Below the pieces are notes generated by a model. That model made no database searches. It was not told the origin of the DNA and was given only the letters and a program-made list of their open reading frames with translations. A program made the translations under genes and the position numbers. A stretch of 64,000 nt of DNA from an uncultured Trueperaceae bacterium (lineage in GTDB: Bacteria; Deinococcota; Deinococci; Deinococcales; Trueperaceae): positions 960,001-1,024,000 of the forward strand of contig CAVSGP010000004.1 of NCBI GenBank assembly GCA_963727505.1, given 5' to 3'. This document shows positions 3,284 to 64,000 of this stretch, one piece after another (positions within the stretch are counted from its first letter, which is position 1; each line of letters starts with the position of its first letter).

Positions 3284-3311
3284 GGCAAGCCTCCTTCACG
3301 GCAGGGCACCC

Positions 3312-41881: not shown

Positions 41882-41925
41882 AGCTTCGCTCCCCACCCGT
41901 GCTGTCGCAGCGACGGGCACGTCCC

Positions 41926-41973
41926 AGCATACATGTCGTGGTCGCTCGAACCGGCCCTGGACCACGATATGAT
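41926..41973. promoter_or_regulatory. Back-to-back divergent -10 boxes with a 12-bp inverted repeat between them
   Basis: Minus TATGCT (41931-41926), plus TATGAT (41968-41973); CATGTCGTGGTC ... GACCACGATATG (11/12 match). Confidence 0.55.
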
Positions 41974-42033
41974 GCGATCCTTGGCACGCGTGGCTGCACG
42001 CAGGCAGCTGCCGTTCACCCGGAGGGAGTCTCC

Positions 42034-48968: not shown

Positions 48969-51290
48969 TTGACCGCGGCCGATGCGCGCGAGCCGGGCGA
49001 ACCGGCGGCCTCGGGCCGTCTGGTACGTGTGCGCGCCTCCGTCTCCCTGCTGGCCGGCGCCGGCCTGCTGCTGGAGATCGCGCTCACGCGCGTGCTGTCG
49101 CTGCTCTACTTCAGCCCCTTCGTGTACGTGCTGCTGGCCGTCGCGGTGCTGGGGGCCGGCCTGGGCGCGGCCGCGGCCACCCTGCTGCCAACGACCCGCA
49201 CCCGGGCCGGCGCCGCGATCGCCGCCGCTGCCGGCGCGCTCGCCACCCCCCTGGTGGTGGTCCTGCTCCTGAGGGTGGCGACGGCGCCCCTGCAGGGTGT
49301 CGCCCTGGCGCTGTGCACGCTCCCGTTCGCGTTCCTGGGGCATGCCCTGGCCACGCTCTTCGCCCTGCACAGCGCCCGCGCCCCTCGGCTCTACCTCCAC
49401 GACCTGGCCGGCGCCGGGATCGGCGCCCTGGCGTCCGTCGCGGCGCTCGACCTCCTCGGCGCGCTCGGTGCGGTGCTGCTGGCGGGCCTGGTGCTCGCGC
49501 TCGCCGCCCTCTTGCTCGCGCCGCGTGCCTACCGGCCGTCCGCAGCGATCGTGGTCGTCGTCGGCGCCGCGCTGCTGACCGGGCACGCGGCGACCGGCTG
49601 GCCGCAGCCGCCGATGGCCCGGCTCGCCGCCGCCAAGCCCCTGAGTCGCGAGCTGCGAAGCGGCGCCAGCGAAGTAGCCCACGCCTGGGACGCCCTGGGG
49701 CGCAGCGACCTGGTGCGGCGGCCCGACGGAAGCCTCTATCTCTACCTCGACGGCGGCGCCGGCTCGCTGGTACCCGACACCGCGCGGCCCACCACCTACC
49801 TGCACGACGTGGGCGCCTACGCGTACGCCGTCCAGAGTCCGCAGAGCGTGTTCATCATCGGTCCCGGCGGCGGTCTGGACGTGGCCCTGGCCCATGCCTT
49901 CGACGTGCCCGACGTCACCGCTGTGGAGCTGAACGGCGCCGGCGTGCGGCTGGCGCGCCGGGCGTCGGCCGACGGCCTGATCGCGGGCGCCCCCGCGTAC
50001 GACGGCACCACGCTTCGCATCGACGAGGGCCGCAGCACCCTGCGGCGCACGCAGCAGCGCTTCGACCTGATCCTGCTCTCGCAGGTGGTCACGGACGCCG
50101 CCGAGGCACGCTCGTACGCGCTGGTCGAGAACGCGGTGTACACGGTGGAGGCCTTCCGGGAGGATCTCGATCACCTCGCTCCGGGCGGCGCCATCGCCCT
50201 GAAGCTCTACGACGAGGTCACCCTCACGCGCGCCCTCACCACCGCGGTGACCGCCCTGTCGGAACACGGCATGAGCGAGGCCGACGCCCTGCACCACACC
50301 CTGGCGGTGCTCGACGCGCGGGGCGGGCGCCCCATCCCGTTGCTCATGGTGTTCGACCATGCGCTCGGCCGCGACGAGGCGCTGGCCTACGGCCGCCTGG
50401 CGCGCTCGGCCGGACTGCAGGTCCTCTACCTCCCGGGGCTGGTGGAGAATCCGCCGCTCGATGCCCTGAGCGCGGGAAGCACCGACCTGCGGCGCATCGA
50501 GGCCGCCAGTGGAGGCGTGGACATCCGGCCCACGCACGACCGCCGGCCCTTCTTCTTCCAGTTCGAACCGGGCCTGCCGCGGCCCCTGCTGTCGCTGCTC
50601 GTGGGGCTGGCCGTACTGACGGCCGCGGCAGCCGTCCTCTTGGCCCTCCGGCAACGTCGCCGGCGCGGGCCCGCGCGGCTGGCGCCGCTGCTCTTCGGCG
50701 CACTCGGCGCCGGCTTCATGTTGTTCGAGGTCGGTGCGCTTCAACGGCTGCGCCTCTACCTGGGGCACCCCACGTTGACGCTGGCGGTGGGGCTGGCCGC
50801 GCTGCTGGTGGGGGCCGGGCTGGGCGCCGGGCTGGCGGGCGGCGCCGCTCGCCGGGTTGGCAACGCAGCTCGAGGCGAGCTCCGGGTGGCCGCCTTGGCG
50901 GCACTGCTGGTGGCGGCGGCCGGCCTCGTCTGGAGCCTGCTGTTCCCGGCGTGGTCGGGGGCCACCCTGGCCTGGCCAACGGCCGCAAGGGCCGCGCTGG
51001 CCGCGGCGACGCTGCTGGTGGTGGCGCTGCCGATGGGGATGCCGTTCCCGCTGGCGCTGCGGGCCGTAGGACGGACGGGCCCCTCGGAGGTGGCGCTGGG
51101 CTGGGCGGTCAACGGTGTTGCGGCGGTCCTGGGCAGCAGCGCCGCCACCGCCGTGGCCTTGACCTGGGGCTTCCCCTACGTGCACCTGGCCGCCGCCGCC
51201 GCTTACCTGCTGGCTGCGGGCACGGCCCCCCTGATGGCGCGCAGCGACGCGTTCACGCCGGCGGGCGCACCACCGACGACCCTTCCCTGA
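48969..51290 (+). CDS. Multi-pass membrane protein with central spermidine-synthase/SAM-binding domain
   Basis: N- and C-terminal TM bundles flank IIGPGGGLDV, AVELN, DEGRS, FDLI, ENAVYTVEAF, DRRPFFFQF; also GMPFP and WAVNG. Confidence 0.8.
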   Translation: MTAADAREPGEPAASGRLVRVRASVSLLAGAGLLLEIALTRVLSLLYFSPFVYVLLAVAVLGAGLGAAAATLLPTTRTRAGAAIAAAAGALATPLVVVLLLRVATAPLQGVALALCTLPFAFLGHALATLFALHSARAPRLYLHDLAGAGIGALASVAALDLLGALGAVLLAGLVLALAALLLAPRAYRPSAAIVVVVGAALLTGHAATGWPQPPMARLAAAKPLSRELRSGASEVAHAWDALGRSDLVRRPDGSLYLYLDGGAGSLVPDTARPTTYLHDVGAYAYAVQSPQSVFIIGPGGGLDVALAHAFDVPDVTAVELNGAGVRLARRASADGLIAGAPAYDGTTLRIDEGRSTLRRTQQRFDLILLSQVVTDAAEARSYALVENAVYTVEAFREDLDHLAPGGAIALKLYDEVTLTRALTTAVTALSEHGMSEADALHHTLAVLDARGGRPIPLLMVFDHALGRDEALAYGRLARSAGLQVLYLPGLVENPPLDALSAGSTDLRRIEAASGGVDIRPTHDRRPFFFQFEPGLPRPLLSLLVGLAVLTAAAAVLLALRQRRRRGPARLAPLLFGALGAGFMLFEVGALQRLRLYLGHPTLTLAVGLAALLVGAGLGAGLAGGAARRVGNAARGELRVAALAALLVAAAGLVWSLLFPAWSGATLAWPTAARAALAAATLLVVALPMGMPFPLALRAVGRTGPSEVALGWAVNGVAAVLGSSAATAVALTWGFPYVHLAAAAAYLLAAGTAPLMARSDAFTPAGAPPTTLP

Positions 51291-52278
51291 GCGAGCGCTC
51301 CACGGCCACGCACAGCGCCACCGCCACACGTCCGTCGTGACCGTCGGCCGGAACCGGCGTCCCCTCGGTGACGGCACGCAAGAACGCCGTCGTCTGCCGC
51401 GGCAGGTCGAAGGCGTGGCCCGTGCGTTGCGGCACCGGCACCGTGCGGATACCATCGTCGTCCTGCGTCCACAGCGACACGGTCGGGTCCTCGTCGGTGT
51501 CCTGCCGCCCGTCCCAGCGCGCCCGCAGGGCGCCGTCCTCGGCGTTGAGGTCGCAGCGCACGTGGTGCTCGAAGCCCGCGACGGTGCGCGTGACCATGGC
51601 GCGAGCTCCGCCCGCGAACGAGAGTCTCACGTCGAGGTTCTCGTGCGCCCCCTCACGGCCGGCGCGGCTCACCGACCAGGCCTGCACCTCCGTGACCTCG
51701 CCGAGGAGCCAGCGCGCCAGGTCGAAATAGTGGATCGGCTCCTCGAGGATGCTGCTGCCGAGCCTGGCGGGATCCTGCTTCCAGCCCGACGCACCCGCGC
51801 GGTAGGGGCGACGGAACAGGCGCAGGTCGAGGTGATCGGGCCGGCCCAGCTTCCCGGCCTCCGCGCGCACCGCCTCGAACAGGCGGAACACGCGCATCTC
51901 GTGGCCGACCGCCAGCACCCGGTCCGCGCGGCGCGCCGCCTCGAGGATGCGGTCGCAGTCCTCGATCCCGATCGCCATCGGCTTCTCCACCAGCACGTGC
52001 TTGCCCGCCTCGAGCGCGGCCACGGCGTGCTCGGCGTGCAGGTCGTTGGGGCTCGCCACGATGACAGCGTCGAGCTCGGAGGCGAGGAACGCCTCCAGGT
52101 CCGTGGTCACCGGCACCTGCCAGGCGCCCTGCAAGCGGTGCGCGCTCACCTCGCTGCGTACCAGCACAGCCGCAAGCGGCGCGCCGACGCTCTCCAGCGC
52201 GGCGCGGTGCATGGCGGCCCAGCGGCCGCCGCCGATGATACCCACACGTACCGGAAGGCGCCCGCTGCCACCGCTCAT
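51253..52278 (-). CDS. Gfo/Idh/MocA family oxidoreductase
   Basis: IIGGGRWA, ASPNDLH, AGKHVLVEKPMA, EEPIHYFD. Confidence 0.9.
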   Translation of the reverse strand: MSGGSGRLPVRVGIIGGGRWAAMHRAALESVGAPLAAVLVRSEVSAHRLQGAWQVPVTTDLEAFLASELDAVIVASPNDLHAEHAVAALEAGKHVLVEKPMAIGIEDCDRILEAARRADRVLAVGHEMRVFRLFEAVRAEAGKLGRPDHLDLRLFRRPYRAGASGWKQDPARLGSSILEEPIHYFDLARWLLGEVTEVQAWSVSRAGREGAHENLDVRLSFAGGARAMVTRTVAGFEHHVRCDLNAEDGALRARWDGRQDTDEDPTVSLWTQDDDGIRTVPVPQRTGHAFDLPRQTTAFLRAVTEGTPVPADGHDGRVAVALCVAVERSLREGSSVVRPPA

Positions 52279-53333
52279 GCCGCCTCCCCCGCGAGCGGCG
52301 GGAGGTCGCCCTGCACCTCGGCCGGGACGACTTCGCGGTCTTCGGCGATCGAGGTCAGCACGGCGAGCGAGGTGCGCAGGGCGCGCACGCCGTCGTCCAT
52401 GGTTGCCAGGGGCCGGTGCTCGAGCCCGTGCAGCTCCCGGTGGAACGCCCGGATCTCCTCCCGCCAGGGGTCGGAGGCCGGGGGCTCCCAACGCAGCGTC
52501 CCCTCCGAGGTCAGCAGCTCGACCCGGTCGGGCCACTCCGCCGTGATCAGCCCGTCGGGCCCCATGTAGGTGTGACGTTCGGTGGCGGCGATGCCCGCGG
52601 GCAGCCCCCAGGACACCTGGATCTGCCCCACGCCCCCGCCCGGATAGCGCAGCGTGATGTGCGCGCTGTCCAGCGCCTTGTGCCGGATGCTCGCCAGTGC
52701 CGGCTTGCCGTCGCCGAACGTGTAGCCGTAGGCGCGCACCCCACTCGGACGTTCACCGTAGAACGCCTCCCACTGGTCGAAGATGTGGCAGCACATGTCG
52801 ATGATGGGGCCCCCGTTGGCCGCCGCGTCGTGCATGAGCAGCTTGGGTCGGATGCCCGCGGCGATGGTGGCCTGCGCCAGCACCGGCCCGCCGATCCTCG
52901 CGCCGAAGGCGAGCATCTGGTGGCTGGCGGGGTCGAAGCGGCGCATGAAGCCGATGCGCAGGAGCTTGCCGCTCTCCTCCGCGGCCTGGCTCATGGCCTC
53001 GGCCTCGGCCAGGCGCAAAGCGGCCGGCTTCTCGCACAGCACGTGCTTTCCCGCCCGCAACGCCGCCACGGTGTAGCGAGCATGCAGATAGGTCGGCGTG
53101 CAGACCGAAGCCGCGCCGACGTCGGCGCGCTCCAGCGCGGTGCCGAGGTCGTCGAGCGCGAGGGCGCCGAAGCCAGCAGCTACGCGCTCGCCCCGGCTCC
53201 GATCGGGGTCGACCACCGCCACCACGCGGGCGCCGGCCTCCGCCCACCAACGTGCGTGACGGGCGCCCATGTCGCCTGCGCCGACGACCACGACGCCGAG
53301 CGGATCCTGGGACCCTTGCTTCGGGATGCTCAT
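52275..53333 (-). CDS. Gfo/Idh/MocA family oxidoreductase
   Basis: VVGAGDMG, CTPTYLH, AGKHVLCEKP, GFMRRFDP, GGPIIDMCCH. Confidence 0.9.
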   Translation of the reverse strand: MSIPKQGSQDPLGVVVVGAGDMGARHARWWAEAGARVVAVVDPDRSRGERVAAGFGALALDDLGTALERADVGAASVCTPTYLHARYTVAALRAGKHVLCEKPAALRLAEAEAMSQAAEESGKLLRIGFMRRFDPASHQMLAFGARIGGPVLAQATIAAGIRPKLLMHDAAANGGPIIDMCCHIFDQWEAFYGERPSGVRAYGYTFGDGKPALASIRHKALDSAHITLRYPGGGVGQIQVSWGLPAGIAATERHTYMGPDGLITAEWPDRVELLTSEGTLRWEPPASDPWREEIRAFHRELHGLEHRPLATMDDGVRALRTSLAVLTSIAEDREVVPAEVQGDLPPLAGEAA

Positions 53334-54397
53334 GGCAGGTACCTCCGGTGCCAGCCCTCCCCGGCGCCCTCCATCGCAGGCGCGCCGCCATAGCGGCGGT
53401 GGTCGTGCCACGGCAGCGCGCCGTCGGCGCGAGCGGAGATGGCACGAAGGTAGGGTAGCGCTCGCGACCGCAGCTGCTCTTCGACCGCCGCCGCGTCGGG
53501 GTAGGCCTCGAGGGCCTCCAGCCACACCGCGCGGCCCGCCAGGAAGCCGCTCGCACCGGCATCGAAGGCGAGCTCGAGATCGATCTCGAACTCGGCCGGC
53601 CCGACGCCCGCGCTCAGCAGCACCCAGGGTGCGGGGCAGGCATCGTCGAGCTCCGCCAGGAAGCCGCGTACCTCGTCCAAGGAGAAGAGGGCGGGGCGCT
53701 CGCGACCGTCGAAAGCGCCGCCGTGATAGCCACGGCAGTGCTTGAGGTCGGCGGGGAACTCGAGCTTGAAGACGTCTACCCCGAAGCGCGGCTCGGCGAA
53801 GCGCCGCACGGACGCGAGGACGCGCTCGGGACGACGCGCCTGGTACTCCGGCGAGGCGGGGTCCTCGCCCGGTTTCGGGTAGACCAGCAGCTCCAAGATG
53901 AACGGGATGTCGCTCACCCGGCAGGCCTCGCCCACCTCGGCCACCAGCCGTTCCTGGTGCGCGCGCGTCGCTTCCGAGGTGTCGGGGCGATACCAGGCCA
54001 GCAGCTTGACGCCGGACGCCCCTGCGCGTTTGATGGCCCCGACGCTCCATCCCTCGATGAGCCTGGAGCGACGCTCCCCGTCGATGACCTCGAAGCCGTA
54101 GTCCTCGAGCGTGCCGATCAGCGCGGTGCTGCCGGGAACGGCCGACAGGGCGGTGGCGTGCGTCCAGACCGGATCGATGAGGATCGCGCCCGCCTCCGGG
54201 GCCAGCACCCGGGTGAGGAGCGCCTTGGCTTCGGCCACCTCATCGAAGCTCAGGCTCTGCGGGTCCCGGTTGCCGGCGCGCGCCAGCGCCTGGAACAGGG
54301 GCGGACGTTGATCGACCGCCACCATGCGGAACACGCCGTCGTCGTCGGCGAGCGTCATCATCGCGCGCAACTTGCCGGCACTCAGGGTCTTACTCAT
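53330..54397 (-). CDS. Class I aldolase, LacD/YihT family (tagatose-bisphosphate or sulfofructose-phosphate aldolase)
   Basis: MVAVDQR, ILIDP, GWSV, GVKLL.WYRPD, FILELLVY, DVFKLEFP, PWVLLSAGV, GASGFLAGRAVW. ATG at 54397 after GGAGGTG. Confidence 0.88.
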   Translation of the reverse strand: MSKTLSAGKLRAMMTLADDDGVFRMVAVDQRPPLFQALARAGNRDPQSLSFDEVAEAKALLTRVLAPEAGAILIDPVWTHATALSAVPGSTALIGTLEDYGFEVIDGERRSRLIEGWSVGAIKRAGASGVKLLAWYRPDTSEATRAHQERLVAEVGEACRVSDIPFILELLVYPKPGEDPASPEYQARRPERVLASVRRFAEPRFGVDVFKLEFPADLKHCRGYHGGAFDGRERPALFSLDEVRGFLAELDDACPAPWVLLSAGVGPAEFEIDLELAFDAGASGFLAGRAVWLEALEAYPDAAAVEEQLRSRALPYLRAISARADGALPWHDHRRYGGAPAMEGAGEGWHRRYLP

Positions 54398-54553
54398 GCT
54401 CACACCTCCACCGTCATCGTCACGGAGTCCATCTCGATTCATCGGTCGGGACCATGGTTCGGGACCATGGGTCGCGTGCGTCTGCCGCGGACGTGCTGCG
54501 GGTTCCGGGGCTGGTTCCTGCTGCGGCATCCGGAGCCGTGGCGCTGGCCGCCA

Positions 54554-55489
54554 TCAGCGCGGGGGCGTCCCGGCGTCCGGGCGCGCATCCCCCGGCCCGG
54601 TGGCAGTGCGGAAGGCGACCACGTCGTCGTGGCTGGGCAGTCCGGCGCGCGCACCGAAGGCGCGGCACGCCATCGCCGCCGCCGTAGCCGCGTAACGGGC
54701 GGCCTCCTCGGCGGATGCGCGCCGCGCGATAGCGGCGGCGTACGCGCCGTGAAACACATCGCCCGCGCCGGTGGTGTCCACCGCCTCGACGCGCGGGGCG
54801 GACACGTGCAGGGTGTGCTGACCCTCCAGCAGCAGCACCCCCTCCGCACCCAGGGTGATCCCCACCACCTGATCGGGGCGCCGCCGCAGGCGCGGCAACG
54901 CCGCCTCGGGGTCGTCCCGGCCGATCAGCTCCTGCGCGCACTCGCGCGCCACCAGCAGATGATCGGCCAGGCCGGCATCCTCCCAGTGGCGGAGGTTGCC
55001 GTAGTCGGCAACGACGGGGACGTTGCCGGCGCGGGCGGCCTCGGCGGCGGCGCGGCACAGGCGAGGATGCCTCAGGTCAACGAGCACCGCCCCGGTCCCT
55101 TCGAGGAAACCGGCCGGCAGGTGGGAGGGGTCGTCCTCGAGCCCGCTCCCGCGGTAGGGGAAGATCCACCGTTCCCCGTCGGGCGCCACCAGCACGGCGC
55201 TGACGAACGTGCGCGCGCCGGGCAGCCGGTGCACGCCGGAGACGTCCACCCCATGCGCCTCGAGATCGACGAGGGCGGTGCTGCCGGCAGCGTCGTCGCC
55301 GTGGAGCGCCACCAACGCGGCGGCCACCCCGAGGTGCGCGGCCGCCGCGGCGGCCGTGGCGGCCGGCCCACCTCCCTGCGTCCGGTAGGCAGTGGCGTCG
55401 GTGCGCGAGTGGACCGGCGGGAAGCGCTCGACCCGCCACACGTGATCCAGACACGACAAACCGACACACACCACACGCGGCCCACTCAC
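54554..55489 (-). CDS. PfkB family kinase, YihV (sulfofructose kinase)-like
   Basis: RVVCVGL..LD, GGGPAATAA, SAVLVAPDGER, YxxxxL, VLVDLR, VDTTGAGDVFHGA. Confidence 0.85.
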   Translation of the reverse strand: MSGPRVVCVGLSCLDHVWRVERFPPVHSRTDATAYRTQGGGPAATAAAAAAHLGVAAALVALHGDDAAGSTALVDLEAHGVDVSGVHRLPGARTFVSAVLVAPDGERWIFPYRGSGLEDDPSHLPAGFLEGTGAVLVDLRHPRLCRAAAEAARAGNVPVVADYGNLRHWEDAGLADHLLVARECAQELIGRDDPEAALPRLRRRPDQVVGITLGAEGVLLLEGQHTLHVSAPRVEAVDTTGAGDVFHGAYAAAIARRASAEEAARYAATAAAMACRAFGARAGLPSHDDVVAFRTATGPGDARPDAGTPPR

Positions 55490-56889
55490 GAGCGCAGATA
55501 GGACGCCGGGGGCAGCGCCGGCAGGACGTCCGCACCGAGGTAGGCGCAAAGCTCGTAGAGCGCTTCCACCCGGTCGCCGCGACCGAAGGCGAGGTGGTGC
55601 GGCAACCGCCTGTCGAGCAAGTTGGCGACGAAGGCGCGCACATCGACGGGGCTCTCACCCCAGCGTAGTCCTCCGATCCAACCGCGGACGCCGTCGTAGC
55701 CCACCTTCTCCTCGCGGCGTACCTCGCCGCCGACGATGACGGCGCGCCCCCCGGAGCTCAGCAGCCGGAAACCGGTCACGGGACCGGCCCGCAGGCGCAT
55801 GTCGCGCACGACGCCGGTGCCGTCGCGGTTGAAGTGCGTGGTGAGACGGGTGTCGGGACCCCCCGAAGGTCCCGGCGCCGCCCACGCCACGGGCGCGTTG
55901 CCGCAGTGCCAGACCTGGAGGCTGTCGTCGGCCTCGTCCACGTCGGAGAGGTCCATGAGGATGGCGGGGTCGCCGCTGACGCCCTGCAGCGCGAGCATCG
56001 ACAGCGCTCCCATCACGTCCCCCTCGCAGGCGGCGGGCACCTCGCGGCCGCTGGAGTCCCCCATCGCGGCGCATGCCATCGAATCGCAGGTGTCCGGCAC
56101 CTCCGGCCAGCACCGCACGGCCAGTGCCGTTGCTCCCGTCTCCTCGGCCAGCCTCTCGAGGGCGGCGTCGATCCGCGCGCCTCGGACGAGCTGCTCGAAC
56201 GATACGTCCGCGCGCTCGCGCTCCTGCCAGCCGCGAGCCCGCGCCTCGGCCTCGGCTTCCGGCACCGCCGCCACGCGCTCGAACAGCGCCGCCAGGTCGC
56301 GCGCGACGACCTCGACCCCCTCGAAGGCGGGCGCCTCCTGGAGTCCGTAGAAGCCCGGCGCGGTGCCACCGATCGCCAGGATGCGGGCGCTGTGCACCGC
56401 AGCCAGACCGCGAAGGGCACCTATCGTGGCCGCGAACCGTCGCCCGAACTCCGGGTCGTCGGGCAGGCCGTAGAACCACTTGACGGGCTCGGACTTGGCG
56501 ACCTGGGGCGCGTCCAGCAGCGAGAGCGTCATGTTCAGGCCGCACAGCGAGTTGAGCGGCAAGGGCCCCTCGCGCCAACCGCCCGCCCGCTCCGGCACGC
56601 CCCACAGGCCGACCCGCTCGGCGGCCGCGAGCAGGGGCGCGACCACGTCGCCGGTCGCGAACGTGGTGAGCTGCACCAGCAGGTAATCGAGGCCCTCTTC
56701 GGCGAGCACGCGGGCCGCTCGCGCGGCCTCGGGCGCGTCCCGCACCGCCTGCACAGGCGCGACCAGCTCGAAGCCGAGCCGCTCCGCCAGCCTCTCCATA
56801 CCTTCGAGGCTGCGGCGCGCAGCCGCTGCGCTGTCCCCCTTGAAGGCGGGCCGCGTCACCGAGACGAACCCGATACGGGGTCGGATCAT
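55486..56889 (-). CDS. L-fucose isomerase-fold protein, SqvD/SftI (sulfoquinovose isomerase)-like
   Basis: RPAF, QLTTFATG, LWGVPE...GPLPLNSLCGLN, TAPGFY, VRCWPE, ACEGDVMG, WHCGNAP, HFN, PHHL. Confidence 0.8.
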   Translation of the reverse strand: MIRPRIGFVSVTRPAFKGDSAAAARRSLEGMERLAERLGFELVAPVQAVRDAPEAARAARVLAEEGLDYLLVQLTTFATGDVVAPLLAAAERVGLWGVPERAGGWREGPLPLNSLCGLNMTLSLLDAPQVAKSEPVKWFYGLPDDPEFGRRFAATIGALRGLAAVHSARILAIGGTAPGFYGLQEAPAFEGVEVVARDLAALFERVAAVPEAEAEARARGWQERERADVSFEQLVRGARIDAALERLAEETGATALAVRCWPEVPDTCDSMACAAMGDSSGREVPAACEGDVMGALSMLALQGVSGDPAILMDLSDVDEADDSLQVWHCGNAPVAWAAPGPSGGPDTRLTTHFNRDGTGVVRDMRLRAGPVTGFRLLSSGGRAVIVGGEVRREEKVGYDGVRGWIGGLRWGESPVDVRAFVANLLDRRLPHHLAFGRGDRVEALYELCAYLGADVLPALPPASYLRS

Positions 56890-56896
56890 CGCTGGA

Positions 56897-57829
56897 TCAT
56901 CCTTTGACTCCTCCGGCGGTGAGACCGCTGATGATGCGCTGCTGGAAGAACAGGATGAGCAGCACGAGGGGGACGATCCCCAGGGTGACGGCGGCCGAGA
57001 TCACCGCCCAGGGGAAGGCGAACTCGCCCTGGTAGAGGGTGATGCCGACGGGAATGGTTCGCATGGTGGTGGCGGTGTTGAACGTCAGCGCCAGCAGGAA
57101 CTCGTTCCAGGAGTTGACGAACGCGATGATGCCCGCCGTCACGATACCGGGCGCCGACAACGGGGCCACGATGCGGACGAGCGCGCCCAGCCGGCTGGCG
57201 CCGTCCACCGTGGCCGCCGACTCCAGGTCCTCCGGGATGAGCTGGAAGAAGCTCGTCAGGATCAGGGTGGTGATCGGCAGGCTCAGGGCGACGTAGGGGA
57301 TGATCAGTGCCCAGTAGGTGTTGAGCAGGTTCGGCGTCATGACGGTGGTCGGGAGGAAGCTCCACCCCATGGCGTGCAGGTACGCCACGACCTGACTGAG
57401 GCCGGGGACCTCGACGCCTACGAACAGGCGGTAGAGCGGGACCAGCATGACGAGCGCCGGGAACATGCTCGTCATCACGATGGCCGTGAGCAGGGCGCGG
57501 CGGCCGCGCAACCTCAGCCGTGCAAGGGCATACCCTGCCAGGGACGCAAAGAGCACACAGATGAGCGTGGCGACGATGGATACCACCGCCGAGTTCAACA
57601 GGAACCGGCCGAACGGATTCTGGGTGAACACGTCGACGTAGTTGTGCAGGATCGGATGCTGCGGCAGATAGGTGATCGGGATGCGGGTGAGCTCGTTCTC
57701 CGACTTGAACGACGTCAGCACCAGCCACACCGCCGGGAACAAACCGTTGAGGAGCATCAACAGCAGACCGAGGCGCACGAAGACGTAGCCGATCCGCTGC
57801 TGGGAAGTCCGTCGCGCTGCCCCGTTCAT
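56897..57829 (-). CDS. Carbohydrate ABC permease (MalG-type)
   Basis: LTSFK, IPEDLESAATVDGAS, SWNEFL, QQRIISGLTAGGVKG. Confidence 0.93.
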   Translation of the reverse strand: MNGAARRTSQQRIGYVFVRLGLLLMLLNGLFPAVWLVLTSFKSENELTRIPITYLPQHPILHNYVDVFTQNPFGRFLLNSAVVSIVATLICVLFASLAGYALARLRLRGRRALLTAIVMTSMFPALVMLVPLYRLFVGVEVPGLSQVVAYLHAMGWSFLPTTVMTPNLLNTYWALIIPYVALSLPITTLILTSFFQLIPEDLESAATVDGASRLGALVRIVAPLSAPGIVTAGIIAFVNSWNEFLLALTFNTATTMRTIPVGITLYQGEFAFPWAVISAAVTLGIVPLVLLILFFQQRIISGLTAGGVKG

Positions 57830-58947
57830 TCGGTGTAGATCCATCGCAGGTAGATGAGGGTAACGGTCAGGCTGATCACGAACAACACCACCGACAGCGC
57901 CGCCGCATAACCGATGTTGAGGGCCAGCGTGCTGTTGTAGATGTACACGCCTAGCGTCTCCAGACTACGACCCGGGCCGCCGCGCGTCATCGCGAACGGG
58001 ATGTCGAAGGTCTGGATGGCCGTGAGCGTCCGGAAGATCAGGGCGACGGCGATCGAGGGCCGCAGAAGCGGCAACGTGATGCGCCAGAACCGCTGCCATG
58101 CGTTGGCGCCGTCGACCACGGCGGCCTCGTAGAGGCTGGCATCGATCGACTGAAGGCCGGCCAGGAGGATGAGGCCGACGAAGGAGGACGTCTTCCAGAC
58201 GATGGTGAGGTTCACGGCCGCGATCGCGGGTGCCACGCGCGCCAGCCACAGCGGGCCTTGGATGCCGAGATGCCTGAGCACGTCGTTGATGACGCCGTAC
58301 TGGTTCTGGAACAACCACGCAAAGGTGAGTCCGGCGAACACCCGCGGCATCGCCCAGGGGAGCAGCAAGGAGACGCGGCCGAGCCAACGGAGTCGCGACT
58401 CGACGTTGGCGAGCAGGGCCAGCGGCAGGCCGACCACGAACGAGCCGATCACGCTCGCGACGAGGATCACCATCGTGATCGAGAAGGAGTCCCAGAAGCG
58501 GCTGTCCGTCCAGCGGCCGTCGGGACCGGGATGGAAGCCGAGCACATAGATCGAGAGCATGGCCAGGACCAGACCGAGGACCGCACCGGTCAACGGCGAG
58601 AGCCAGCGCCGGCGCACGACCCAGATCAGCGGCGCCAGCAGAGCGACTCCGACCAACCGTAGCCACAGCAGGTGCGAGAGGTTCCACGTCAGCCCCTCCC
58701 CCCAAAGCATCCGCCGGAAGTTCTCGAACCCGATGAAGGGCGTGCCGCGGAAGGGCTGGTTGAGCCGGTTGAAATGCAGCGACTGCCACACCACCGAGAT
58801 CATGGGGTAGAGCATCACCGCGGCCAGGGTCAGCAATGCGGGCAGGAGGAAGAGGATGCCCAACTGGGCGTCCGACAGGTTGCCGGTCCGCAGCCTCCGC
58901 CAGAAGCCGGGCTTGCGATAGGGGGTGGTGGAACGGGGTTCGATCAT
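57826..58947 (-). CDS. Carbohydrate ABC permease (MalF-type)
   Basis: FIGFENF, LLPWAMP, LAGLQSIDASLYEAAVVDGA, ITLPLL, TRGGPG. Confidence 0.93.
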   Translation of the reverse strand: MIEPRSTTPYRKPGFWRRLRTGNLSDAQLGILFLLPALLTLAAVMLYPMISVVWQSLHFNRLNQPFRGTPFIGFENFRRMLWGEGLTWNLSHLLWLRLVGVALLAPLIWVVRRRWLSPLTGAVLGLVLAMLSIYVLGFHPGPDGRWTDSRFWDSFSITMVILVASVIGSFVVGLPLALLANVESRLRWLGRVSLLLPWAMPRVFAGLTFAWLFQNQYGVINDVLRHLGIQGPLWLARVAPAIAAVNLTIVWKTSSFVGLILLAGLQSIDASLYEAAVVDGANAWQRFWRITLPLLRPSIAVALIFRTLTAIQTFDIPFAMTRGGPGRSLETLGVYIYNSTLALNIGYAAALSVVLFVISLTVTLIYLRWIYTE

Positions 58948-58973
58948 GAGTAGATACAGGGTGTCAGATCGGT

Positions 58974-59000
58974 GGGGTGGGGCGACGGGCGCCCCACCCC
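58974..59000. other. Stem-loop between SBP and permease genes
   Basis: GGGGTGGGGCG-N5-CGCCCCACCCC. Confidence 0.6.
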
Positions 59001-59026
59001 CGAGATTCGATCGGGGAACGGATCCC

Positions 59027-60292
59027 CTACTGGGACAGGATGTCCTGCAGTCCTGTCTGCATCTTCTTGAGCGTCTGATCGACGGTCAGCGACCGAGCGA
59101 AGAAGGCGTTCATGGTGGTCCGGATCAGGTTGCTGACGTCGGGATAGAGCGGCGTCACCGGCCTGGGCCGAGCGTTGATGATGACGTCGTAGAACTGCGA
59201 GAACTGCGGGGCCGCCTCGAGCACCGCCGGATCCTTGTAGAGGGACTTCCGCGCCGGGATGTTGCTGGCCTTCACCGCCAGCGTGCGCTGGCTGTCCTCG
59301 CTCGCCAGGAAGCGCATCAGCTTGAAGGCGTCCTGCTTGTGCGCGCTGTAGGGGTTCATCGCCCACTGCCAGCCCCCGACGCACGTCGCAGAAGAATTGC
59401 CCTGGAAGGCGGGCAGCGGCGCCACGCCGACCTTGCCCTTGACGGCGCTGTCCTTGTCGGCCTGGAAGTGCGCCCACGCGTAGCCCCAGTTCAGCATGAA
59501 CACCACGTCGCCGGACTGGAACATCTTACGGGAGTCGTCGGTCCCGACCGAAGCGATGTCAGGGATGGTGATGCCCGACGAGAGCGTCTCGTTGTACCAG
59601 TCGAGCGCCTGCTTGCCGGCCGCCGTGTCGACGGTGATGTTGCCGTTGGCGTCGCGCCAGTTGCCGCCTGCCGTCCACAGCGCCTCGAGGAAGGTGCAGT
59701 TGGTGCCCTCGATGGCGGCGCCCTGGTAGTTGAAGCCCTGGAGCCTGGGGTTGTTCTCCCCCTTCATGATGGTGAGCGCTTCGCTCTTCAGCTCTTCCCA
59801 GGTCTTGGGCGGCTTGAGACCGTACTTGTCGAGCAGGTCCTTGCGGTAGTAGAGGAACTGCGCGTCGGTGAAGGCGGGGACGGCGTACAGCTTGCCGTTC
59901 ACCGTATCGGCGTTGACCGGGCCGGGCAGGAACGACGCGAGGTAGGTCTTCTCCGCGTCGGGGCTCGCGAAGTAGCTGTTGAGCGGCTCGGCCCAGCCCG
60001 AGGCTGCGTACTGCGCGGGCCGCACGACGTCGATGAGCATCACGTCGATCGCCGACGACTTGCTGGTGAGCACGGTGCTCAGGTACTGCTGCTGTACATC
60101 ACTGGTCGCACCGCCCACCTCGAAGGTGGCGTGCATGTCGGGGTTCTCGGCGTTGAACTTGTCGAGCAGGGGCCCGATCACGTCGGGTCGCTGCTGACCG
60201 CCGATGAAGACCTTGAGATTCACCTGGGCGGCGCCGGTCGCGAGCAGCGCGGCGAACGCCAGGGCGAGCAGGATGCGGGTGAGTCGGTTCAT
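59027..60292 (-). CDS. Carbohydrate ABC substrate-binding protein
   Basis: Signal peptide MNRLTRILLALAFAALLATGAAQ, LYYRKDLL, PKTWEEL, GVAPLP, RPVTP. Confidence 0.92.
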   Translation of the reverse strand: MNRLTRILLALAFAALLATGAAQVNLKVFIGGQQRPDVIGPLLDKFNAENPDMHATFEVGGATSDVQQQYLSTVLTSKSSAIDVMLIDVVRPAQYAASGWAEPLNSYFASPDAEKTYLASFLPGPVNADTVNGKLYAVPAFTDAQFLYYRKDLLDKYGLKPPKTWEELKSEALTIMKGENNPRLQGFNYQGAAIEGTNCTFLEALWTAGGNWRDANGNITVDTAAGKQALDWYNETLSSGITIPDIASVGTDDSRKMFQSGDVVFMLNWGYAWAHFQADKDSAVKGKVGVAPLPAFQGNSSATCVGGWQWAMNPYSAHKQDAFKLMRFLASEDSQRTLAVKASNIPARKSLYKDPAVLEAAPQFSQFYDVIINARPRPVTPLYPDVSNLIRTTMNAFFARSLTVDQTLKKMQTGLQDILSQ

Positions 60293-60339
60293 GATTACCT
60301 CCGGAATCGTCTTGGGTCGTTGGCGAACGGACGGGTCGT

Positions 60340-61374
60340 CTACGCAGGCGGCACCTCCATCGTGGCGGGGGGACCCGTGCTGTCTCGGACGATGAGCTGG
60401 GTCGCCAGCCGGACCGACTGGACGGACCCGCCGGCCATCAGGGTGAGAAGCGCGTCGAAGGCCATCTCGCCAAGGCGGCGTGTCGCCTGCCGGACCGAGG
60501 TGAGGGCGGGGCGGGCCACGGCGGCGAGCGGCGTGTCGTCGAAGCCGACCACCGAGACGTCGCCGGGTACGCAACGGCCCGCCGCCGCAAGGGCGCGCAA
60601 CGCCCCCAGAGCGACCAGGTCGTTGTTCGCGAGCACGGCCTCGAAGCGCGTTCCGCCGGCGATCAGGCGCGCGCAGGCCTCGGCGCCGCCCGTGCGACTG
60701 TCGTCGGTGGGCACCAGCAGCGAGCGGTCGGCCACCAGCCCGAAGGTCTCGACTCCGGTCCGGTAGGCACGGATGCGCCGTTCGGCGTAGCGCGAGCCGC
60801 GGGGCCCGCTCAGGAACGCCACCCGTCGTAGACCGAGCTGCTCGAGGTGCGCCAGCGCCTGCCACACCCCGGCGCGCTCGTTGCTGCCGATGCTCACCGC
60901 GTCGAGGCTTCGCGGGCCGGCATGGATGGCGACCACCGGATAACGAGCGGTGATCAGGCGATTGAGGCCGTCGACGTCGTCGTCGGTCACGCTGGATCCG
61001 AGCACGAGCAGGCCGTCGACACGACCCTCGCGCAGCCACAGCGTGAAGTCGGGACGGGGCGCCGTTGAGAGGAGCAGCGGGAAGCCTGCCTCCTCGGCCC
61101 GGCTGGTGACGCCGAGCAGGAGCTCGCTGAAGTAGGGGTTGGCGAAGACGAGTTCGGAGCTCCGGGGAAGCATCAATCCGACGGCCTGCGCCCTGCGGCG
61201 GGTCAGCGCCCGGGCTGCGGCGTCGGGACGGTAGCCAAGCGTGTCGGCGAGCTCCCGGACGCGCGTACGGGTGGCCGCGGCGATCTGGGGGTCGTCCCGC
61301 AACGCACGCGACACCGTGGAACGGGCCAACCCCAGCCGCTCGGAGAGGTCCTTCAGAGTGAGCTTGCGCCTCAC
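60340..61374 (-). CDS. LacI family transcriptional regulator
   Basis: TLKDLSERLGLARSTVSRAL, LGYRPDAAARAL, VSVVGFDD, PALTSVRQ, LIVRDST. Confidence 0.93.
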   Translation of the reverse strand: MRRKLTLKDLSERLGLARSTVSRALRDDPQIAAATRTRVRELADTLGYRPDAAARALTRRRAQAVGLMLPRSSELVFANPYFSELLLGVTSRAEEAGFPLLLSTAPRPDFTLWLREGRVDGLLVLGSSVTDDDVDGLNRLITARYPVVAIHAGPRSLDAVSIGSNERAGVWQALAHLEQLGLRRVAFLSGPRGSRYAERRIRAYRTGVETFGLVADRSLLVPTDDSRTGGAEACARLIAGGTRFEAVLANNDLVALGALRALAAAGRCVPGDVSVVGFDDTPLAAVARPALTSVRQATRRLGEMAFDALLTLMAGGSVQSVRLATQLIVRDSTGPPATMEVPPA

Positions 61375-61445
61375 ACTCGACCGCCCGTCTCCCCGCCCCG
61401 ATCGGCCCACGACGCGCGGCCCTCAGGGACGATGCGGAAGCTACT

Positions 61446-61469
61446 TCGCAACCGGTTGCGACAACGGTA
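61446..61469 (-). promoter_or_regulatory. LacI-type operator next to an extended -10 box
   Basis: Perfect 16-bp palindrome TCGCAACCGGTTGCGA (61446-61461) with central CG; minus-strand TGnTACCGT immediately upstream. Confidence 0.8.
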
Positions 61470-61518: not shown

Positions 61519-64000
61519 TTACAGCGCGCCCTGTGCCTGAAGCCGGCGCGCCACCTCGTCGGGGGCGAGCGGAGGAGCGAAGAGGTAGCCCTGGCCGTAG
61601 TCGCAGCCCAGCTCGAGGAGCGTCTCGAGCTCCTCTTCGCGCTCGATACCCTCGGCCACCGCGTCGATTCCGAGGCTCCGGGCGAGCCCGACGATGGTGC
61701 TCACCACGTCCCTGTTAGCCGCGTCGGCGTCGATCCCTCGCACGAAGGAGCCGTCGATCTTGAGCGAGTCGATGGGGAGACGCTGGAGGTACTTCAGCGA
61801 GGAGAAGCCGGTGCCGAAGTCGTCCACCTGGACCCGCACGCCCATCCGATGAAGGCTCGTGAGCGCCTCGGCAGCGGCCTCCGGATAGCTCATCAGGGCG
61901 CCTTCGCTGATCTCGAGCTTGAGACTGGAAGCCGGCGCGCCCGCCTCCTCCAGAGCAGCTCGCAGCATCGTGTCCATGTCCTGCAGCGCGAGGTGCCGGG
62001 CCGACACGTTGACACTGACCACGGGGGGCGGCACGCTCCCGTCCAGCTCGCGTGCCCAGGTCGCGAGCTGACGCGTCGCCTGGCCGAGCACCCAGCGATC
62101 GATCGCGACGATCTGGCCCGACTCCTCGGCCAGCGGCACGAACTCCGACGGAGGGACGAGCCCGCGCTCCGGGTGCTGCCAGCGCACCAGCGCCTCGACG
62201 CCCACCAGGCGGCGTTCTCGCAACTGGTAGACGGGCTGGTACTCGAGGAACAGCTCGTTGCGATCGGGCGCACGGTGGAGGCTGGTCTCCAGCTGCATCT
62301 GCCCGAGCGCGCGGGCGTGCATGCCCTTGTCGAAGATCGCGAAGCGCGCCTTGCCCGACGCCTTGGCGCGGTACATGGCGATGTCGGCGTCGCGCAGCAG
62401 TTCCTGAGGATCGCGGTAGTGGGGCGCGGAGAAGGCGATCCCGATCGAAGCACTCGTGAAGATGTCGTGACCGTGCAACGTGAACGGCTCGGCGAGAGCG
62501 CTCTGGATGCGCGTGGCGGTCGCGGTCGCGTGGTCGGGGCCGTCGACGTCCTCGATGAGCACGCAGAACTCGTCTCCTCCCAGCCGGGCCACTGTGTCGG
62601 AACCGCGCACGCAGGTCTTGAGGCGCACGGCCAGGGCCTTGAGCAACTCGTCGCCGGCGTTGTGGCCGAGGCTGTCGTTGACGACCTTGAAGCGGTCGAG
62701 ATCCAGGAAGAGCAGCGCGAAGTGCCAGGACTCGTTGCGGGCGGCGCGCGACAGGGCCTGGCGCAGGCGGTCGAGCAGGAGCACGCGGTTGGCCAGGCTG
62801 GTCAGCTCGTCGAACAGCGCACCCTGCACCAGGCGTTCCTCGATGCGTTTGCGCTCGGTGATGTCGCGCGACGACGTCACGAAGTTGACCACCTCTCCCC
62901 GCTCATCACGCACACTCTGGGCGACGGTCTCGAGCCACACGTAGCGACCGTCGGCGCGCCGGAAACGGTACCCGACCTGGACCGACTCCTGTCCCTCCAA
63001 CAGGCGCTGCCGTCCACCCTTGCGCACCCGGTCGCGGTCCTCCTCGTGGATCAGCGTGAAGGGGTCGATCCCCACGAGCGCGTCCGGGGCGTAACCGAGA
63101 ACGGTGGTCGCCGATGGGCTGACGTAGACGCAGCGCCCCGCAGGGTCGTGCAGACAGACCAGGTCCTGCATATGCTCGGCGAGCAGGCGGAAACGCTGCT
63201 CGCTCTGTCGGACGACCCCGTAGAGGCGGCCGCGTTCCGCCGCCACCCCGAGCTGTTCGCCCAGGGCCCGCAGCATCCGGAGGTCCTCGTCGGCCGAGCC
63301 GGCGGCGCGGCCCTCCGCCACAAGCACGCCCACCACACCGTCGCCCGCCACGAGCGGGACCGCTGCCTGCCACGGAGCCGCGACCGGCGCCCCGCCGACA
63401 CCGGTCGCTTCGTCGTTTGCGCCGCCTCCGATGAGGAGCGGCTCACCAGTCTCGGCCACGCGGGAGGCGACTTGCGTCACCTCACCGAGCGCGTTTCGCG
63501 CCGACGCGCTCTCGTAGCCGAGCTGATGCTGCAACACCAGCTCGCCCCCGACCCATGCGAACAGACCCACCCTGCGGTACCCCAGCACCTCCACTGTTGC
63601 CGATGCCGCAGCGGCGAACACCGCCTGCAGGTCGAGCTCGCTGGCGACCGCGCCACGGACCCGATCGAGCAGCGTCAATTCGGCCGCCTGGCGCTTCGCG
63701 GCCTCGAACAACGATCGGTACTCGGCGGCCTGGCCACGGCTCTGTTCCACCAGAGCCAGCCGGTCGAGCGCGTTGCCGCAGGCCAGCGCGATGGCCTCGA
63801 GGAAGCCCGTGTCCTCGCGCTCGAAGCTGCGGCTCCCCGCCTGGGCCAGCGCGCTCACGACGCCGACGATCTCGCCCTCGCCGTTGCGCAGGGGCGTGCC
63901 CAGGAAGGCCACCGGCCGCGGGGCCCCGGACGGGACCGGCACATCGGTCAGGCCGGCGGCGTCGCGCACGCCGACCGTCCGGCCCTCGTCGACCACTTGC
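61519..64000 (-). CDS. GAF-GAF-PAS-GGDEF-EAL c-di-GMP signalling protein (5' end outside the window)
   Basis: DLDRFKVVNDSLGH, ARLGGDEF, ADIAMYRAK, EALVRW, DDFGTGFSSL, LKIDGSF, AEGIE; PAS segment YVSPS...LGY. Confidence 0.93.
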   Translation of the reverse strand, partial: QVVDEGRTVGVRDAAGLTDVPVPSGAPRPVAFLGTPLRNGEGEIVGVVSALAQAGSRSFEREDTGFLEAIALACGNALDRLALVEQSRGQAAEYRSLFEAAKRQAAELTLLDRVRGAVASELDLQAVFAAAASATVEVLGYRRVGLFAWVGGELVLQHQLGYESASARNALGEVTQVASRVAETGEPLLIGGGANDEATGVGGAPVAAPWQAAVPLVAGDGVVGVLVAEGRAAGSADEDLRMLRALGEQLGVAAERGRLYGVVRQSEQRFRLLAEHMQDLVCLHDPAGRCVYVSPSATTVLGYAPDALVGIDPFTLIHEEDRDRVRKGGRQRLLEGQESVQVGYRFRRADGRYVWLETVAQSVRDERGEVVNFVTSSRDITERKRIEERLVQGALFDELTSLANRVLLLDRLRQALSRAARNESWHFALLFLDLDRFKVVNDSLGHNAGDELLKALAVRLKTCVRGSDTVARLGGDEFCVLIEDVDGPDHATATATRIQSALAEPFTLHGHDIFTSASIGIAFSAPHYRDPQELLRDADIAMYRAKASGKARFAIFDKGMHARALGQMQLETSLHRAPDRNELFLEYQPVYQLRERRLVGVEALVRWQHPERGLVPPSEFVPLAEESGQIVAIDRWVLGQATRQLATWARELDGSVPPPVVSVNVSARHLALQDMDTMLRAALEEAGAPASSLKLEISEGALMSYPEAAAEALTSLHRMGVRVQVDDFGTGFSSLKYLQRLPIDSLKIDGSFVRGIDADAANRDVVSTIVGLARSLGIDAVAEGIEREEELETLLELGCDYGQGYLFAPPLAPDEVARRLQAQGAL

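Follow-up and report, generated by a model that had tools for sequence, protein, structure and literature searches.

Does a member of the Trueperaceae (Deinococcota) degrade sulfoquinovose (SQ), an abundant sulfosugar of plants produced at approximately 10 billion tonnes per year (PMC10755693), and, if so, with which enzymes? The question is raised by nine co-directional genes, lacI to Gfo2, at 51253-61374 on the minus strand of a 64,000-nucleotide stretch of DNA (the window; contig C4:960001-1024000) from a draft Trueperaceae genome of 15 contigs and 3.26 Mb. Judging from the sequence, we give a probability of about 0.75 to these genes being a catabolic operon for SQ or SQ-glycerol, of a hybrid type of the Embden-Meyerhof-Parnas route of sulfoglycolysis (sulfo-EMP). 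Genes in the window, whose G+C content is ~70%, were called from codon-position G+C and stop-to-stop frames with start codons picked by eye, and gene families were confirmed by Pfam and NCBIfam profile searches. An earlier note on this DNA had listed a LacI regulator, three sugar ABC transporter genes, a protein of the FucI fold, a PfkB kinase, a class I aldolase, and two Gfo/Idh/MocA genes on one strand, and all of these were found on the minus strand, with 4-bp overlaps at three junctions (isomerase/kinase, aldolase/Gfo1, and Gfo1/Gfo2) and no ABC ATPase gene within the nine-gene run. The nearest related loci belong to metagenome-assembled genomes (MAGs) titled Trueperaceae, Deinococcales, Deinococci, or Deinococcota. 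Since Gfo1, the isomerase, and the kinase accompany Gfo2 (at least 45% identity) in all 25 distinct related loci that contain it, the association of these genes is far beyond chance; the aldolase was present in 21 of the 25.

The solute-binding protein (SBP; 59027-60292), a member of Pfam SBP_bac_1, had SmoF as its best match in the PDB (7nbz, 376 bits, E = 1.7e-111; 48% identity), followed by MalE3 (252 bits) and TMBP (243 bits). SmoF is the SQ-glycerol binding protein of Agrobacterium, in which the sulfonate is held by Thr220, Gly166, Ser43, and a water on His13/Gln46 (PMC8795539). Four of these five residues are kept in the window SBP (Thr220, Gly166, Ser43, and Gln46), while His13 is replaced by Gln. 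MalE3 keeps two of the five and TMBP two of the four that align, its alignment beginning past His13, and neither retains Gln46 together with Thr220, unlike the window protein. The retained Ser, Gln, Gly, and Thr were found in 12 of 14 orthologues, the window counted and Deinococcus peraridilitoris among them. This pattern points to a SmoF-type SQ-glycerol binder, and the SBP is a candidate for binding SQ-glycerol or SQ. It is followed by two permease genes, permease 1 at 57826-58947 (start uncertain) and permease 2 at 56897-57844, which matched Pfam BPD_transp_1 with 57.7 and 60.9 bits, respectively. Plasmid-borne relatives of the SBP with 42-48% identity come from Rhizobiales records and from clusters of Burkholderia and Ralstonia, the latter annotated with an alpha-glucosidase, a TSUP transporter, glpK/glpD, LacI, an IlvD/Edd dehydratase, an aldolase, an aldose epimerase, and a short-chain dehydrogenase/reductase; by their gene content these clusters look like the sulfoglycolytic Entner-Doudoroff (sulfo-ED) type.

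The PfkB kinase (54554-55489; Pfam, 156 bits) had been described as YihV-type. YihV (7ag6) was the best among 46 PDB matches at 142.5 bits, with ribokinases at 98 bits or less, and the protein is 35% identical to E. coli YihV. The sulfonate triad of YihV is Lys27, Arg138, and Asn109 (KRN), and the catalytic residue is Asp244 of the GXGD motif (PMC8006165). At YihV positions K27, N109, R138, and D162, the window kinase and its 29 orthologues (30 of 30) carry R, P, R, and D, as compared to T, I, E, and N in E. coli RbsK. The kinase also keeps Asp13 and Asp244, and cationic residues occupy two of the three triad positions, with the triad reading R-R-P. The comparison of sulfonate pockets that the earlier note had proposed came out mixed, in favor at Arg138, Asp162, and the cationic Arg at Lys27, and against at Asn109. 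The best NCBIfam match was ribokinase at 128.7 bits. Taken together, the sequence marks the enzyme as a YihV-like candidate sulfofructose 1-kinase.

The isomerase (55486-56889), of the FucI/AraA superfamily, had a single NCBIfam match, the SftI model NF048012 (E = 6e-36, 124 bits), which aligned at residues 8-452 on profile positions 6-437 of 443. Pfam Fucose_iso_C scored 19.9 bits, under its cut-off, a PDB sequence search returned no solved relative, and an Atlas search placed the protein among L-fucose/L-arabinose isomerase clusters, at the superfamily level only. The earlier description as SqvD-type holds for the FucI-like superfamily and for SftI as the sole curated, full-length match, and fails at closer range, as 124 bits fall far below the SftI equivalog cut-off of 700. 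We regard the protein as a distant, full-length SftI/SqvD relative and a candidate SQ to sulfofructose isomerase. More remote isomerase relatives stand in other settings. In a Devosia MAG (L042:6805-10431), one of 29-30% identity follows a gene for a transketolase pyrimidine-binding/C-terminal subunit and a GntR/UTRA regulator, an arrangement reminiscent of the sulfoglycolytic transketolase (sulfo-TK) pathway. In Granulosicoccaceae (L039:1212-10416, also L038, L040, and L044), one of 26-28% identity accompanies a DeoC/LacD aldolase and Dak1/Dak2 subunits, with a xylose-isomerase-like TIM barrel, a sugar ABC system, and a nearby TauE gene, and these loci may represent another variant with a Dak-type kinase.

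The DeoC/LacD class I aldolase (53330-54397) scored 308 bits against NF009498 ('tagatose 1,6-diphosphate aldolase'; cut-off 184), which places it in the LacD/PRK12858 group; that name describes a subfamily and implies no assayed substrate. In the PDB, 8tnf scored 244 bits, LacD 142, and YihT 77, and because the first two exceed the score of YihT, the enzyme is LacD/PRK12858-type and no YihT orthologue. A text search, judged by titles, found no literature on the protein of 8tnf. The enzyme keeps the Schiff-base lysine (YihT Lys193), Arg253, and Ser226, and carries Ala for Ser227, as does LacD; these pocket residues do not, by sequence, separate sulfonate from phosphate. Of the term 'LacD/YihT-type', then, the first half and the class I assignment stand and orthology to YihT does not, and the proposed pocket comparison with YihT, while matching at three residues, does not discriminate. 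The aldolase is a candidate for cleavage of sulfofructose-1-phosphate. In two proteobacterial loci (L170 and L191), both kinds lie side by side, the LacD-type aldolase (46%) adjoining an enzyme that is 54% identical to E. coli YihT and a true orthologue of it, with CsqR-like genes as neighbors and a YihV-like gene in L170.

The Gfo/Idh/MocA oxidoreductases Gfo1 (52275-53333; Pfam GFO_IDH_MocA, 100 bits) and Gfo2 (51253-52278; 95.6 bits) are the most distinctive part of the operon and were left unexplained by the earlier note. They are distant paralogues, 26% identical to one another, and homologues of homodimeric enzymes. No YihQ-type sulfoquinovosidase of glycoside hydrolase (GH) family 31 was found in the operon or the genome, whose single GH31 gene (C9:483817-486384) lacks YihQ Arg301, Trp304, and Tyr508, and a search of the genome and of 60 Deinococcota loci gave no SqgA-type motif. 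Gfo1 and Gfo2 occupy the slot in which related clusters carry GH31 or SqgA. SqgA is the NAD+-dependent sulfoquinovosidase of family GH188, found in sulfo-EMP clusters without GH31 (Kaur et al. 2023, PMC10755693), and its active site comprises Lys107, Tyr136 (the proposed base), Arg166 and Lys172 (sulfonate), Glu189, His193, and His321 (PMC10755693). When Gfo2 segment 120-215 was searched against the PDB, SqgA structures ranked second (8qc2, E = 1.4e-3) and fourth (8qc3, E = 3.3e-3). Alignment with five SqgA-type proteins from related clusters, numbered with the EKP lysine as Lys107, showed that Gfo2 keeps five of the seven residues, namely Lys107 (Lys99), Arg166 (Arg156), Glu189 (Glu179), His193 (His183), and the G-x-H histidine (His288), the equivalence of the last with His321 being probable; Tyr136 is Met, Lys172 is Gly, and SqgA Leu170 is Arg160. 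The kept residues are invariant in 15 orthologues, and Arg157 lies in the same loop. Gfo1 keeps two of the seven (Lys107 and His193), with Arg at Tyr136, Ile at Arg166, Leu at Leu170, a gap at Lys172, Asp at Glu189, and the G-x-H region absent, and it carries the EKP and D-x3-H motifs of inositol-type dehydrogenases. By these residues, neither protein is a GH188 member.

AlphaFold2 models of Gfo2 and Gfo1 had mean confidence (pLDDT) values of 91.6 and 87.7. Foldseek placed Gfo1 nearest to inositol dehydrogenases, YjhC, and NanOx (top matches 4hkt, TM0414, YjhC, and RgNanOx), and Gfo2 nearest to 1,5-anhydrofructose reductase and several sugar C3-dehydrogenases. Since these neighbors are generic Gfo/Idh/MocA enzymes and SqgA is absent from the Gfo2 matches listed, to rank 50, the fold gives no specific assignment. 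A scan with a Gfo2 profile outside the Deinococcota returned only generic relatives of ~24-42% identity, and among the 80 loci kept, SQ genes were present only in the three Deinococcota loci, with weak (25-38%) sugar-ABC, GH31, or LacI neighbors in four others. Two Rhodospirillales loci have Gfo2-like genes (34-38%) beside the aldolase, but as part of a module that also comprises an ATPase, another SBP, permeases, and YdjC, and these genes could not be tied to SQ.

That the Gfo2/Gfo1 pair opens SQ glycosides by transient NAD-dependent oxidation is the weakest step in our reading, and we put it close to, and a little under, an even chance. A substantial possibility is that the pair is not a glycosidase at all and instead performs C3 oxidation and re-reduction in a multi-enzyme 3-keto-glycoside route, with a lyase and hydratase encoded elsewhere, or acts on another intermediate, such as sulfolactaldehyde, 2,3-dihydroxypropane-1-sulfonate (DHPS), glycerol, or an epimer of the sulfosugar. 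The Foldseek neighbors of Gfo2 would suit such a role (GnnA, WlbA, KanD2, levoglucosan dehydrogenase, glucuronide 3-dehydrogenase, DgpA, and 1,5-anhydrofructose reductase), as would the co-occurrence of two distant paralogues in 25 of 25 loci, which resembles two-oxidoreductase routes, and the loss of SqgA Tyr136 from both proteins. A xylose-isomerase-like TIM-barrel gene, which could encode the lyase or hydratase partner, lies beside the cluster in three loci, upstream of the SBP gene (L013:4743-5600, between lacI and the SBP gene; L009 and L010, ~3200-4060). However, the window and most loci have no such gene beside the block, and tblastn with two of the TIM-barrel proteins gave nothing above 60 bits in the genome. 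Gfo2 also retains the SqgA sulfonate Arg, Glu189, His193, and the GxH histidine, and the pair sits at the GH31/SqgA position of related clusters, both of which speak for cleavage of the glycoside.

Aldol cleavage of sulfofructose-1-phosphate would leave sulfolactaldehyde, and genes that could dispose of its products lie elsewhere in the window. A D-cysteate sulfo-lyase gene, CuyA (41899-43032, plus strand), and a cysteate racemase gene, CuyB (43029-43787, plus), both belong to their equivalogs, scoring 528.5 bits against NF052482 (cut-off 450) and 264.7 bits against NF052483 (cut-off 190). They are followed by an SlcC-like 2-hydroxyacid dehydrogenase of the SERA type (43784-44737, plus; 2-Hacid_dh), whose best match was phosphoglycerate dehydrogenase at 271 bits. 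SlcC is the (S)-sulfolactate dehydrogenase, a 2-hydroxyacid dehydrogenase of the SERA clade (PMC6303947), and CuyB and CuyA take L-cysteate through D-cysteate to pyruvate, ammonia, and sulfite (PMC11193023). The 2-hydroxyacid dehydrogenase gene stands directly downstream of Gfo2 in 8 of the 22 related loci whose sequence extends at least 2.5 kb past Gfo2, and in three of these (L007, L013, and L015) CuyB and CuyA follow it, so that the trio lies directly 3′ of Gfo2. A 56%-identical relative of an aldehyde dehydrogenase gene of D. peraridilitoris that resembles succinate semialdehyde dehydrogenase (SSADH), encoded on contig C9, is a candidate sulfolactaldehyde dehydrogenase. Adjoining the CuyA module are a deoC gene (40889-41965) and an aldehyde dehydrogenase gene (37906-40335, minus), an 809-aa frame with a full aldehyde dehydrogenase domain (50-496) followed by a partial Aldedh match (profile 15-237). 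This double frame may stem from a tandem remnant, from a fusion, or from an assembly artefact, and its product is possibly a sulfolactaldehyde or acetaldehyde dehydrogenase.

The first gene of the run, lacI (60340-61374), has a GTG start chosen by eye and encodes a LacI-family repressor of 344 aa (Pfam LacI, 38 bits; Peripla_BP_3, 113 bits) that reached no NCBIfam equivalog, the best being RbsR at 155 bits (cut-off 382). The sequence TCGCAACCGGTTGCGA (61446-61461), which lies ~72 bp upstream of that start, reads directly as a perfect 16-bp palindrome with a central CCGG. No other exact copy of the 16-mer occurs in the 3.26-Mb genome, which has two further sites at up to two mismatches. In the window, one site was found at up to three mismatches versus 0.49 expected, a count reached by 37 of 100 shuffles and therefore not significant on its own. 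Nevertheless, each of the 12 related loci with a lacI gene has a copy with no more than three substitutions at 35-87 bp upstream of that gene, and for this reason we take the palindrome to be a real, conserved LacI-type operator, with predicted binding of a repressor that has the helix-turn-helix, the periplasmic-binding-like core, and a site with a central CG. The perfect operator claimed by the earlier note is thereby borne out. Its contrast of LacI with CsqR/DeoR control stands for this locus, and LacI-family regulators are annotated in the Burkholderia and Ralstonia plasmid clusters too. A common SQ-LacI subfamily was considered and rejected, since the window LacI showed no similarity to the LacI genes of those clusters at E < 1e-10.

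From these parts, the following pathway can be proposed. LacI would repress at the palindrome upstream of its own gene and be released by a sugar of the pathway. The SmoF-like SBP and the two permeases would import SQ-glycerol or SQ, with an ATPase encoded elsewhere, and Gfo2/Gfo1 might open the glycoside by transient NAD-dependent oxidation in place of a GH31 or GH188 sulfoquinovosidase. The FucI-fold isomerase would convert SQ to sulfofructose, the YihV-like kinase sulfofructose to sulfofructose-1-phosphate, and the LacD-type aldolase would cleave the latter to dihydroxyacetone phosphate (DHAP) and sulfolactaldehyde. The sulfolactaldehyde would probably be oxidized to sulfolactate by a dehydrogenase outside the operon, after which the SlcC-like dehydrogenase would give sulfopyruvate, an aminotransferase cysteate, and CuyB and CuyA pyruvate, ammonia, and sulfite.

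The core of this pathway occurs well beyond the window. Plasmid pDEIPE01 of D. peraridilitoris DSM 19664 carries homologues of the SBP (47%), the permeases, the isomerase (40%), the kinase (41%), and the aldolase (40%), then a GH31 gene and an AEC transporter/exporter, alongside a divergent GntR gene, the SSADH-like aldehyde dehydrogenase gene, and an M24-family gene. Outside the Deinococcota, a profile search with the aldolase gave 57 loci with relatives of 41-49% identity in Alphaproteobacteria, Acidimicrobiia, Nitriliruptoraceae, and Burkholderiales, and counts over these are lower bounds, many of the loci being incomplete. A YihV-like kinase (37-48% to E. coli YihV) was found in 43 of the 57 and a FucI-like isomerase in 41; a relative of the window 2-hydroxyacid dehydrogenase (43-48%) precedes the kinase in 21. 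A gene with the SqgA loop motif was present in 20 loci, a CsqR-like regulator (33-49% to E. coli CsqR) in 11, a SmoF-like SBP in 8, an SSADH-like gene in 8, a D. peraridilitoris-type GH31 in 6, and YihS in none. In all, the core cluster was found in many soil, marine, and soda-lake lineages. As in D. peraridilitoris, relatives of the GH31 (34-50%) stand 3′ of the isomerase in six alphaproteobacterial loci (L151, L153, L155, L158, L195, and L199), and this GH31 type is possibly an unrecognised sulfoquinovosidase subfamily.

Several observations weigh against an operon for SQ. A complete sulfo-EMP set is not present, as the operon has no sulfolactaldehyde dehydrogenase or reductase, mutarotase, or exporter, and the CuyA module lies ~6.5 kb downstream, with a peptide-type ABC system and a membrane protein between. 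The isomerase stays below the SftI/SqvD equivalog, the kinase has Pro at YihV Asn109 and Arg for Lys27, and the aldolase is nearer to tagatose-bisphosphate aldolases than to YihT, with its Arg253 common to LacD and non-diagnostic. The aldolase is also missing from 4 of the 25 related loci, and searches of those four genomes with it gave a 31-32% paralogue only in two and nothing in the other two. Gfo2 is without Tyr136 and Lys172 of SqgA and finds no SqgA among its Foldseek matches, and Gfo1 resembles an ordinary inositol-type dehydrogenase. Finally, the D. peraridilitoris GH31 (L018:18249-20435) is no proven sulfoquinovosidase, because it is YicI-like (482 bits versus 241 for YihQ) and lacks the YihQ sulfonate residues Arg301, Trp304, and Tyr508.

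Given the LacD-type aldolase, a serious alternative is a different 6-sulfo hexose as the substrate of the operon, with sulfofucose (6-deoxy-6-sulfo-D-galactose) foremost, degraded in an EMP-like route via sulfotagatose and sulfotagatose-1-phosphate, although we consider it improbable. The aldolase passes the NF009498 tagatose model and prefers LacD to YihT, and all the evidence for a sulfonated substrate, from the SBP, the kinase, and the link to CuyA, suits sulfofucose equally. Against this route, LacD-type aldolases are reportedly lax with respect to the C3/C4 configuration. A route of this kind, with a PF00294 kinase and a PF01791 aldolase, has been hypothesised in print, but it was not induced and no sulfotagatose was detected in the organism reported there, which used an ED-type pathway, and the sugar is described as rare (PMC12421959), whereas the core cluster is found in many lineages. 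SqgA-motif genes also occur in 20 of the 57 related clusters and CsqR-like regulators in 11, the studied members of both acting on or responding to SQ, and the SBP is 48% identical to its closest solved relative, which binds SQ-glycerol. A non-sulfonated sugar (a rare ketose, tagatose, a 6-deoxyhexose, or an alpha-glucoside), isomerized, phosphorylated at position 1 or 6, and cleaved by the aldolase with the Gfo proteins as ordinary sugar dehydrogenases, fits the automatic names (ribokinase at 128.7 bits, tagatose-1,6-diphosphate aldolase, L-fucose/L-arabinose isomerase), the alpha-xylosidase-like GH31 of D. peraridilitoris, and the fact that no operon gene reaches a sulfo-specific equivalog cut-off, but is very unlikely because the SBP is far nearer to SmoF than to maltose/trehalose binders and retains Gln46 with Thr220, the kinase has Arg/Arg where ribokinase has Thr/Glu, and the genetic links to SlcC-like/CuyB/CuyA genes recur, with CsqR-like, SqgA-motif, and SSADH-like genes in other phyla.

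The putative SQ operon has the following neighbors. Directly upstream of lacI is a gene for a GAF-PAS-GGDEF-EAL signaling protein (61519-63996, minus), the counterpart of which in a related locus (L005:2479-7743) encodes 1754 aa with an extra 7TM region. At the other end, a gene on the plus strand (48969-51290) converges on Gfo2 and shares 38 bp with its 3′ end; it encodes a membrane protein of 773 aa, apparently multi-pass, which had no Pfam or NCBIfam match. A scan for consensus promoters gave 0 sites and one for terminator-like sites gave 4 versus 2.8 expected, both uninformative. Seven Trueperaceae loci (L024:6661-7776, L030:13524-14639, and also L027, L028, L031, L052, and L142) have an insertion between Gfo1 and Gfo2, a gene of the Peptidase_M24 family (pita-bread fold). 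The genome of the window has no copy of this gene, which shares 33% identity with the 'aminopeptidase P family' gene (L018:8653-9714) beside the D. peraridilitoris SSADH-like gene.

SQ degraders are inferred from gene markers, and because a marker set composed of YihQ, SqgA, YihS, and YihT would not detect this operon, SQ consumption by Trueperaceae of soda lakes, salars, and soils would go unnoticed. Should Gfo1 and Gfo2 cleave glycosides, they would be a third enzyme solution for the release of SQ, and if the CuyA link is real, Trueperaceae would return sulfite directly rather than handing C3 sulfonates to others. The combined proposal, a third kind of SQ-glycoside cleavage distinct from GH31 and GH188 and coupled through SlcC-like/CuyB/CuyA to conversion of SQ to pyruvate and sulfite in a single organism, is doubtful on present sequence evidence. 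It is unusual, to our knowledge, for one organism to couple desulfonation genes directly with a sulfoglycolytic operon, most SQ degraders being described as excreting DHPS or sulfolactate. The widespread core of kinase, LacD-type aldolase, FucI-type isomerase, and SlcC-like dehydrogenase merits a biochemical reference member, for which D. peraridilitoris DSM 19664 is a cultured candidate.

How, then, does the operon compare with known systems? A full-text search found no literature pairing sulfoquinovose with Truepera, and among texts with sulfoquinovose and Deinococc none was on catabolism, judging by the listing. The supplementary list of GH188 proteins has 13 Deinococcus-Thermus entries, all Thermales or unclassified, of 377-405 aa and none from Trueperaceae (PMC10755693), so SQ genes are not unprecedented in the phylum. 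Hybrid sulfo-EMP1/2 clusters mixing PF02952, PF00294, and PF01791 across Proteobacteria and Actinobacteria were described bioinformatically in 2023 (PMC10665668; reviewed in PMC12890257), and the same core stands in dozens of the Alphaproteobacteria and Acidimicrobiia loci above, so the mosaic core is not new, and the earlier note's suggestion that such a hybrid is uncharacterised did not survive, although no biochemical study of a hybrid member with this enzyme set was found in the sources covered. The broader claim of a sulfoglycolytic mosaic under LacI agrees with every test run, with the qualifications that the isomerase is distant, the aldolase is no YihT orthologue, and the hybrid type was already known. 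What is new here is LacI control with its operator, the Gfo1 and Gfo2 pair, and the coupling to CuyA. SQ would be taken to DHAP and sulfolactaldehyde, as in the published hybrids, by an isomerase (PF02952-type), a kinase (PF00294), and a class I aldolase (PF01791), but those hybrids were described with E. coli YihT and YaSqiA homologues as seeds, and the aldolase here is LacD/PRK12858-type, in a Trueperaceae host with LacI rather than CsqR or GntR and with neither GH31 nor SqgA. One supplementary file of that study contains none of the words Deinococc, Truepera, and peraridilitoris (PMC10665668).

With the E. coli sulfo-EMP pathway (YihS/V/T/U/Q and CsqR; PMC8006165), the operon shares the predicted intermediates, a YihV homologue, and an aldolase of the same Pfam family with the Schiff-base lysine, whereas it has no homologue of YihS (AGE-fold), YihQ, YihR, YihU, or CsqR, and tblastn found no YihS in the genome; uptake is by an ABC system here and by a transporter of the major facilitator superfamily in E. 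coli. The SqvD/SftI isomerase of Bacillus urumqiensis sulfo-EMP2 and of the sulfoglycolytic transaldolase (sulfo-TAL) pathway (PMC12890257) is of the same FucI-like superfamily, with the SftI model matched at full length, but the kinase here is PfkB (PF00294) and not PF00365, and the aldolase is class I and not the class II SqiA. As compared to SqgA (PMC10755693), Gfo2 has the same Gfo/Idh/MocA fold, a setting in an SQ cluster without GH31, and Lys107, Arg166, Glu189, His193, and the GxH histidine in common, yet it is ~50-60 residues shorter, is without the HRFPF..K...WNRF...GGTLVEKCCH motif, and is always paired with a second paralogue. In the desulfonation module, the window CuyA and CuyB pass the equivalog cut-offs and the neighboring dehydrogenase is SERA-like, as in the known SlcC, CuyB, and CuyA enzymes.

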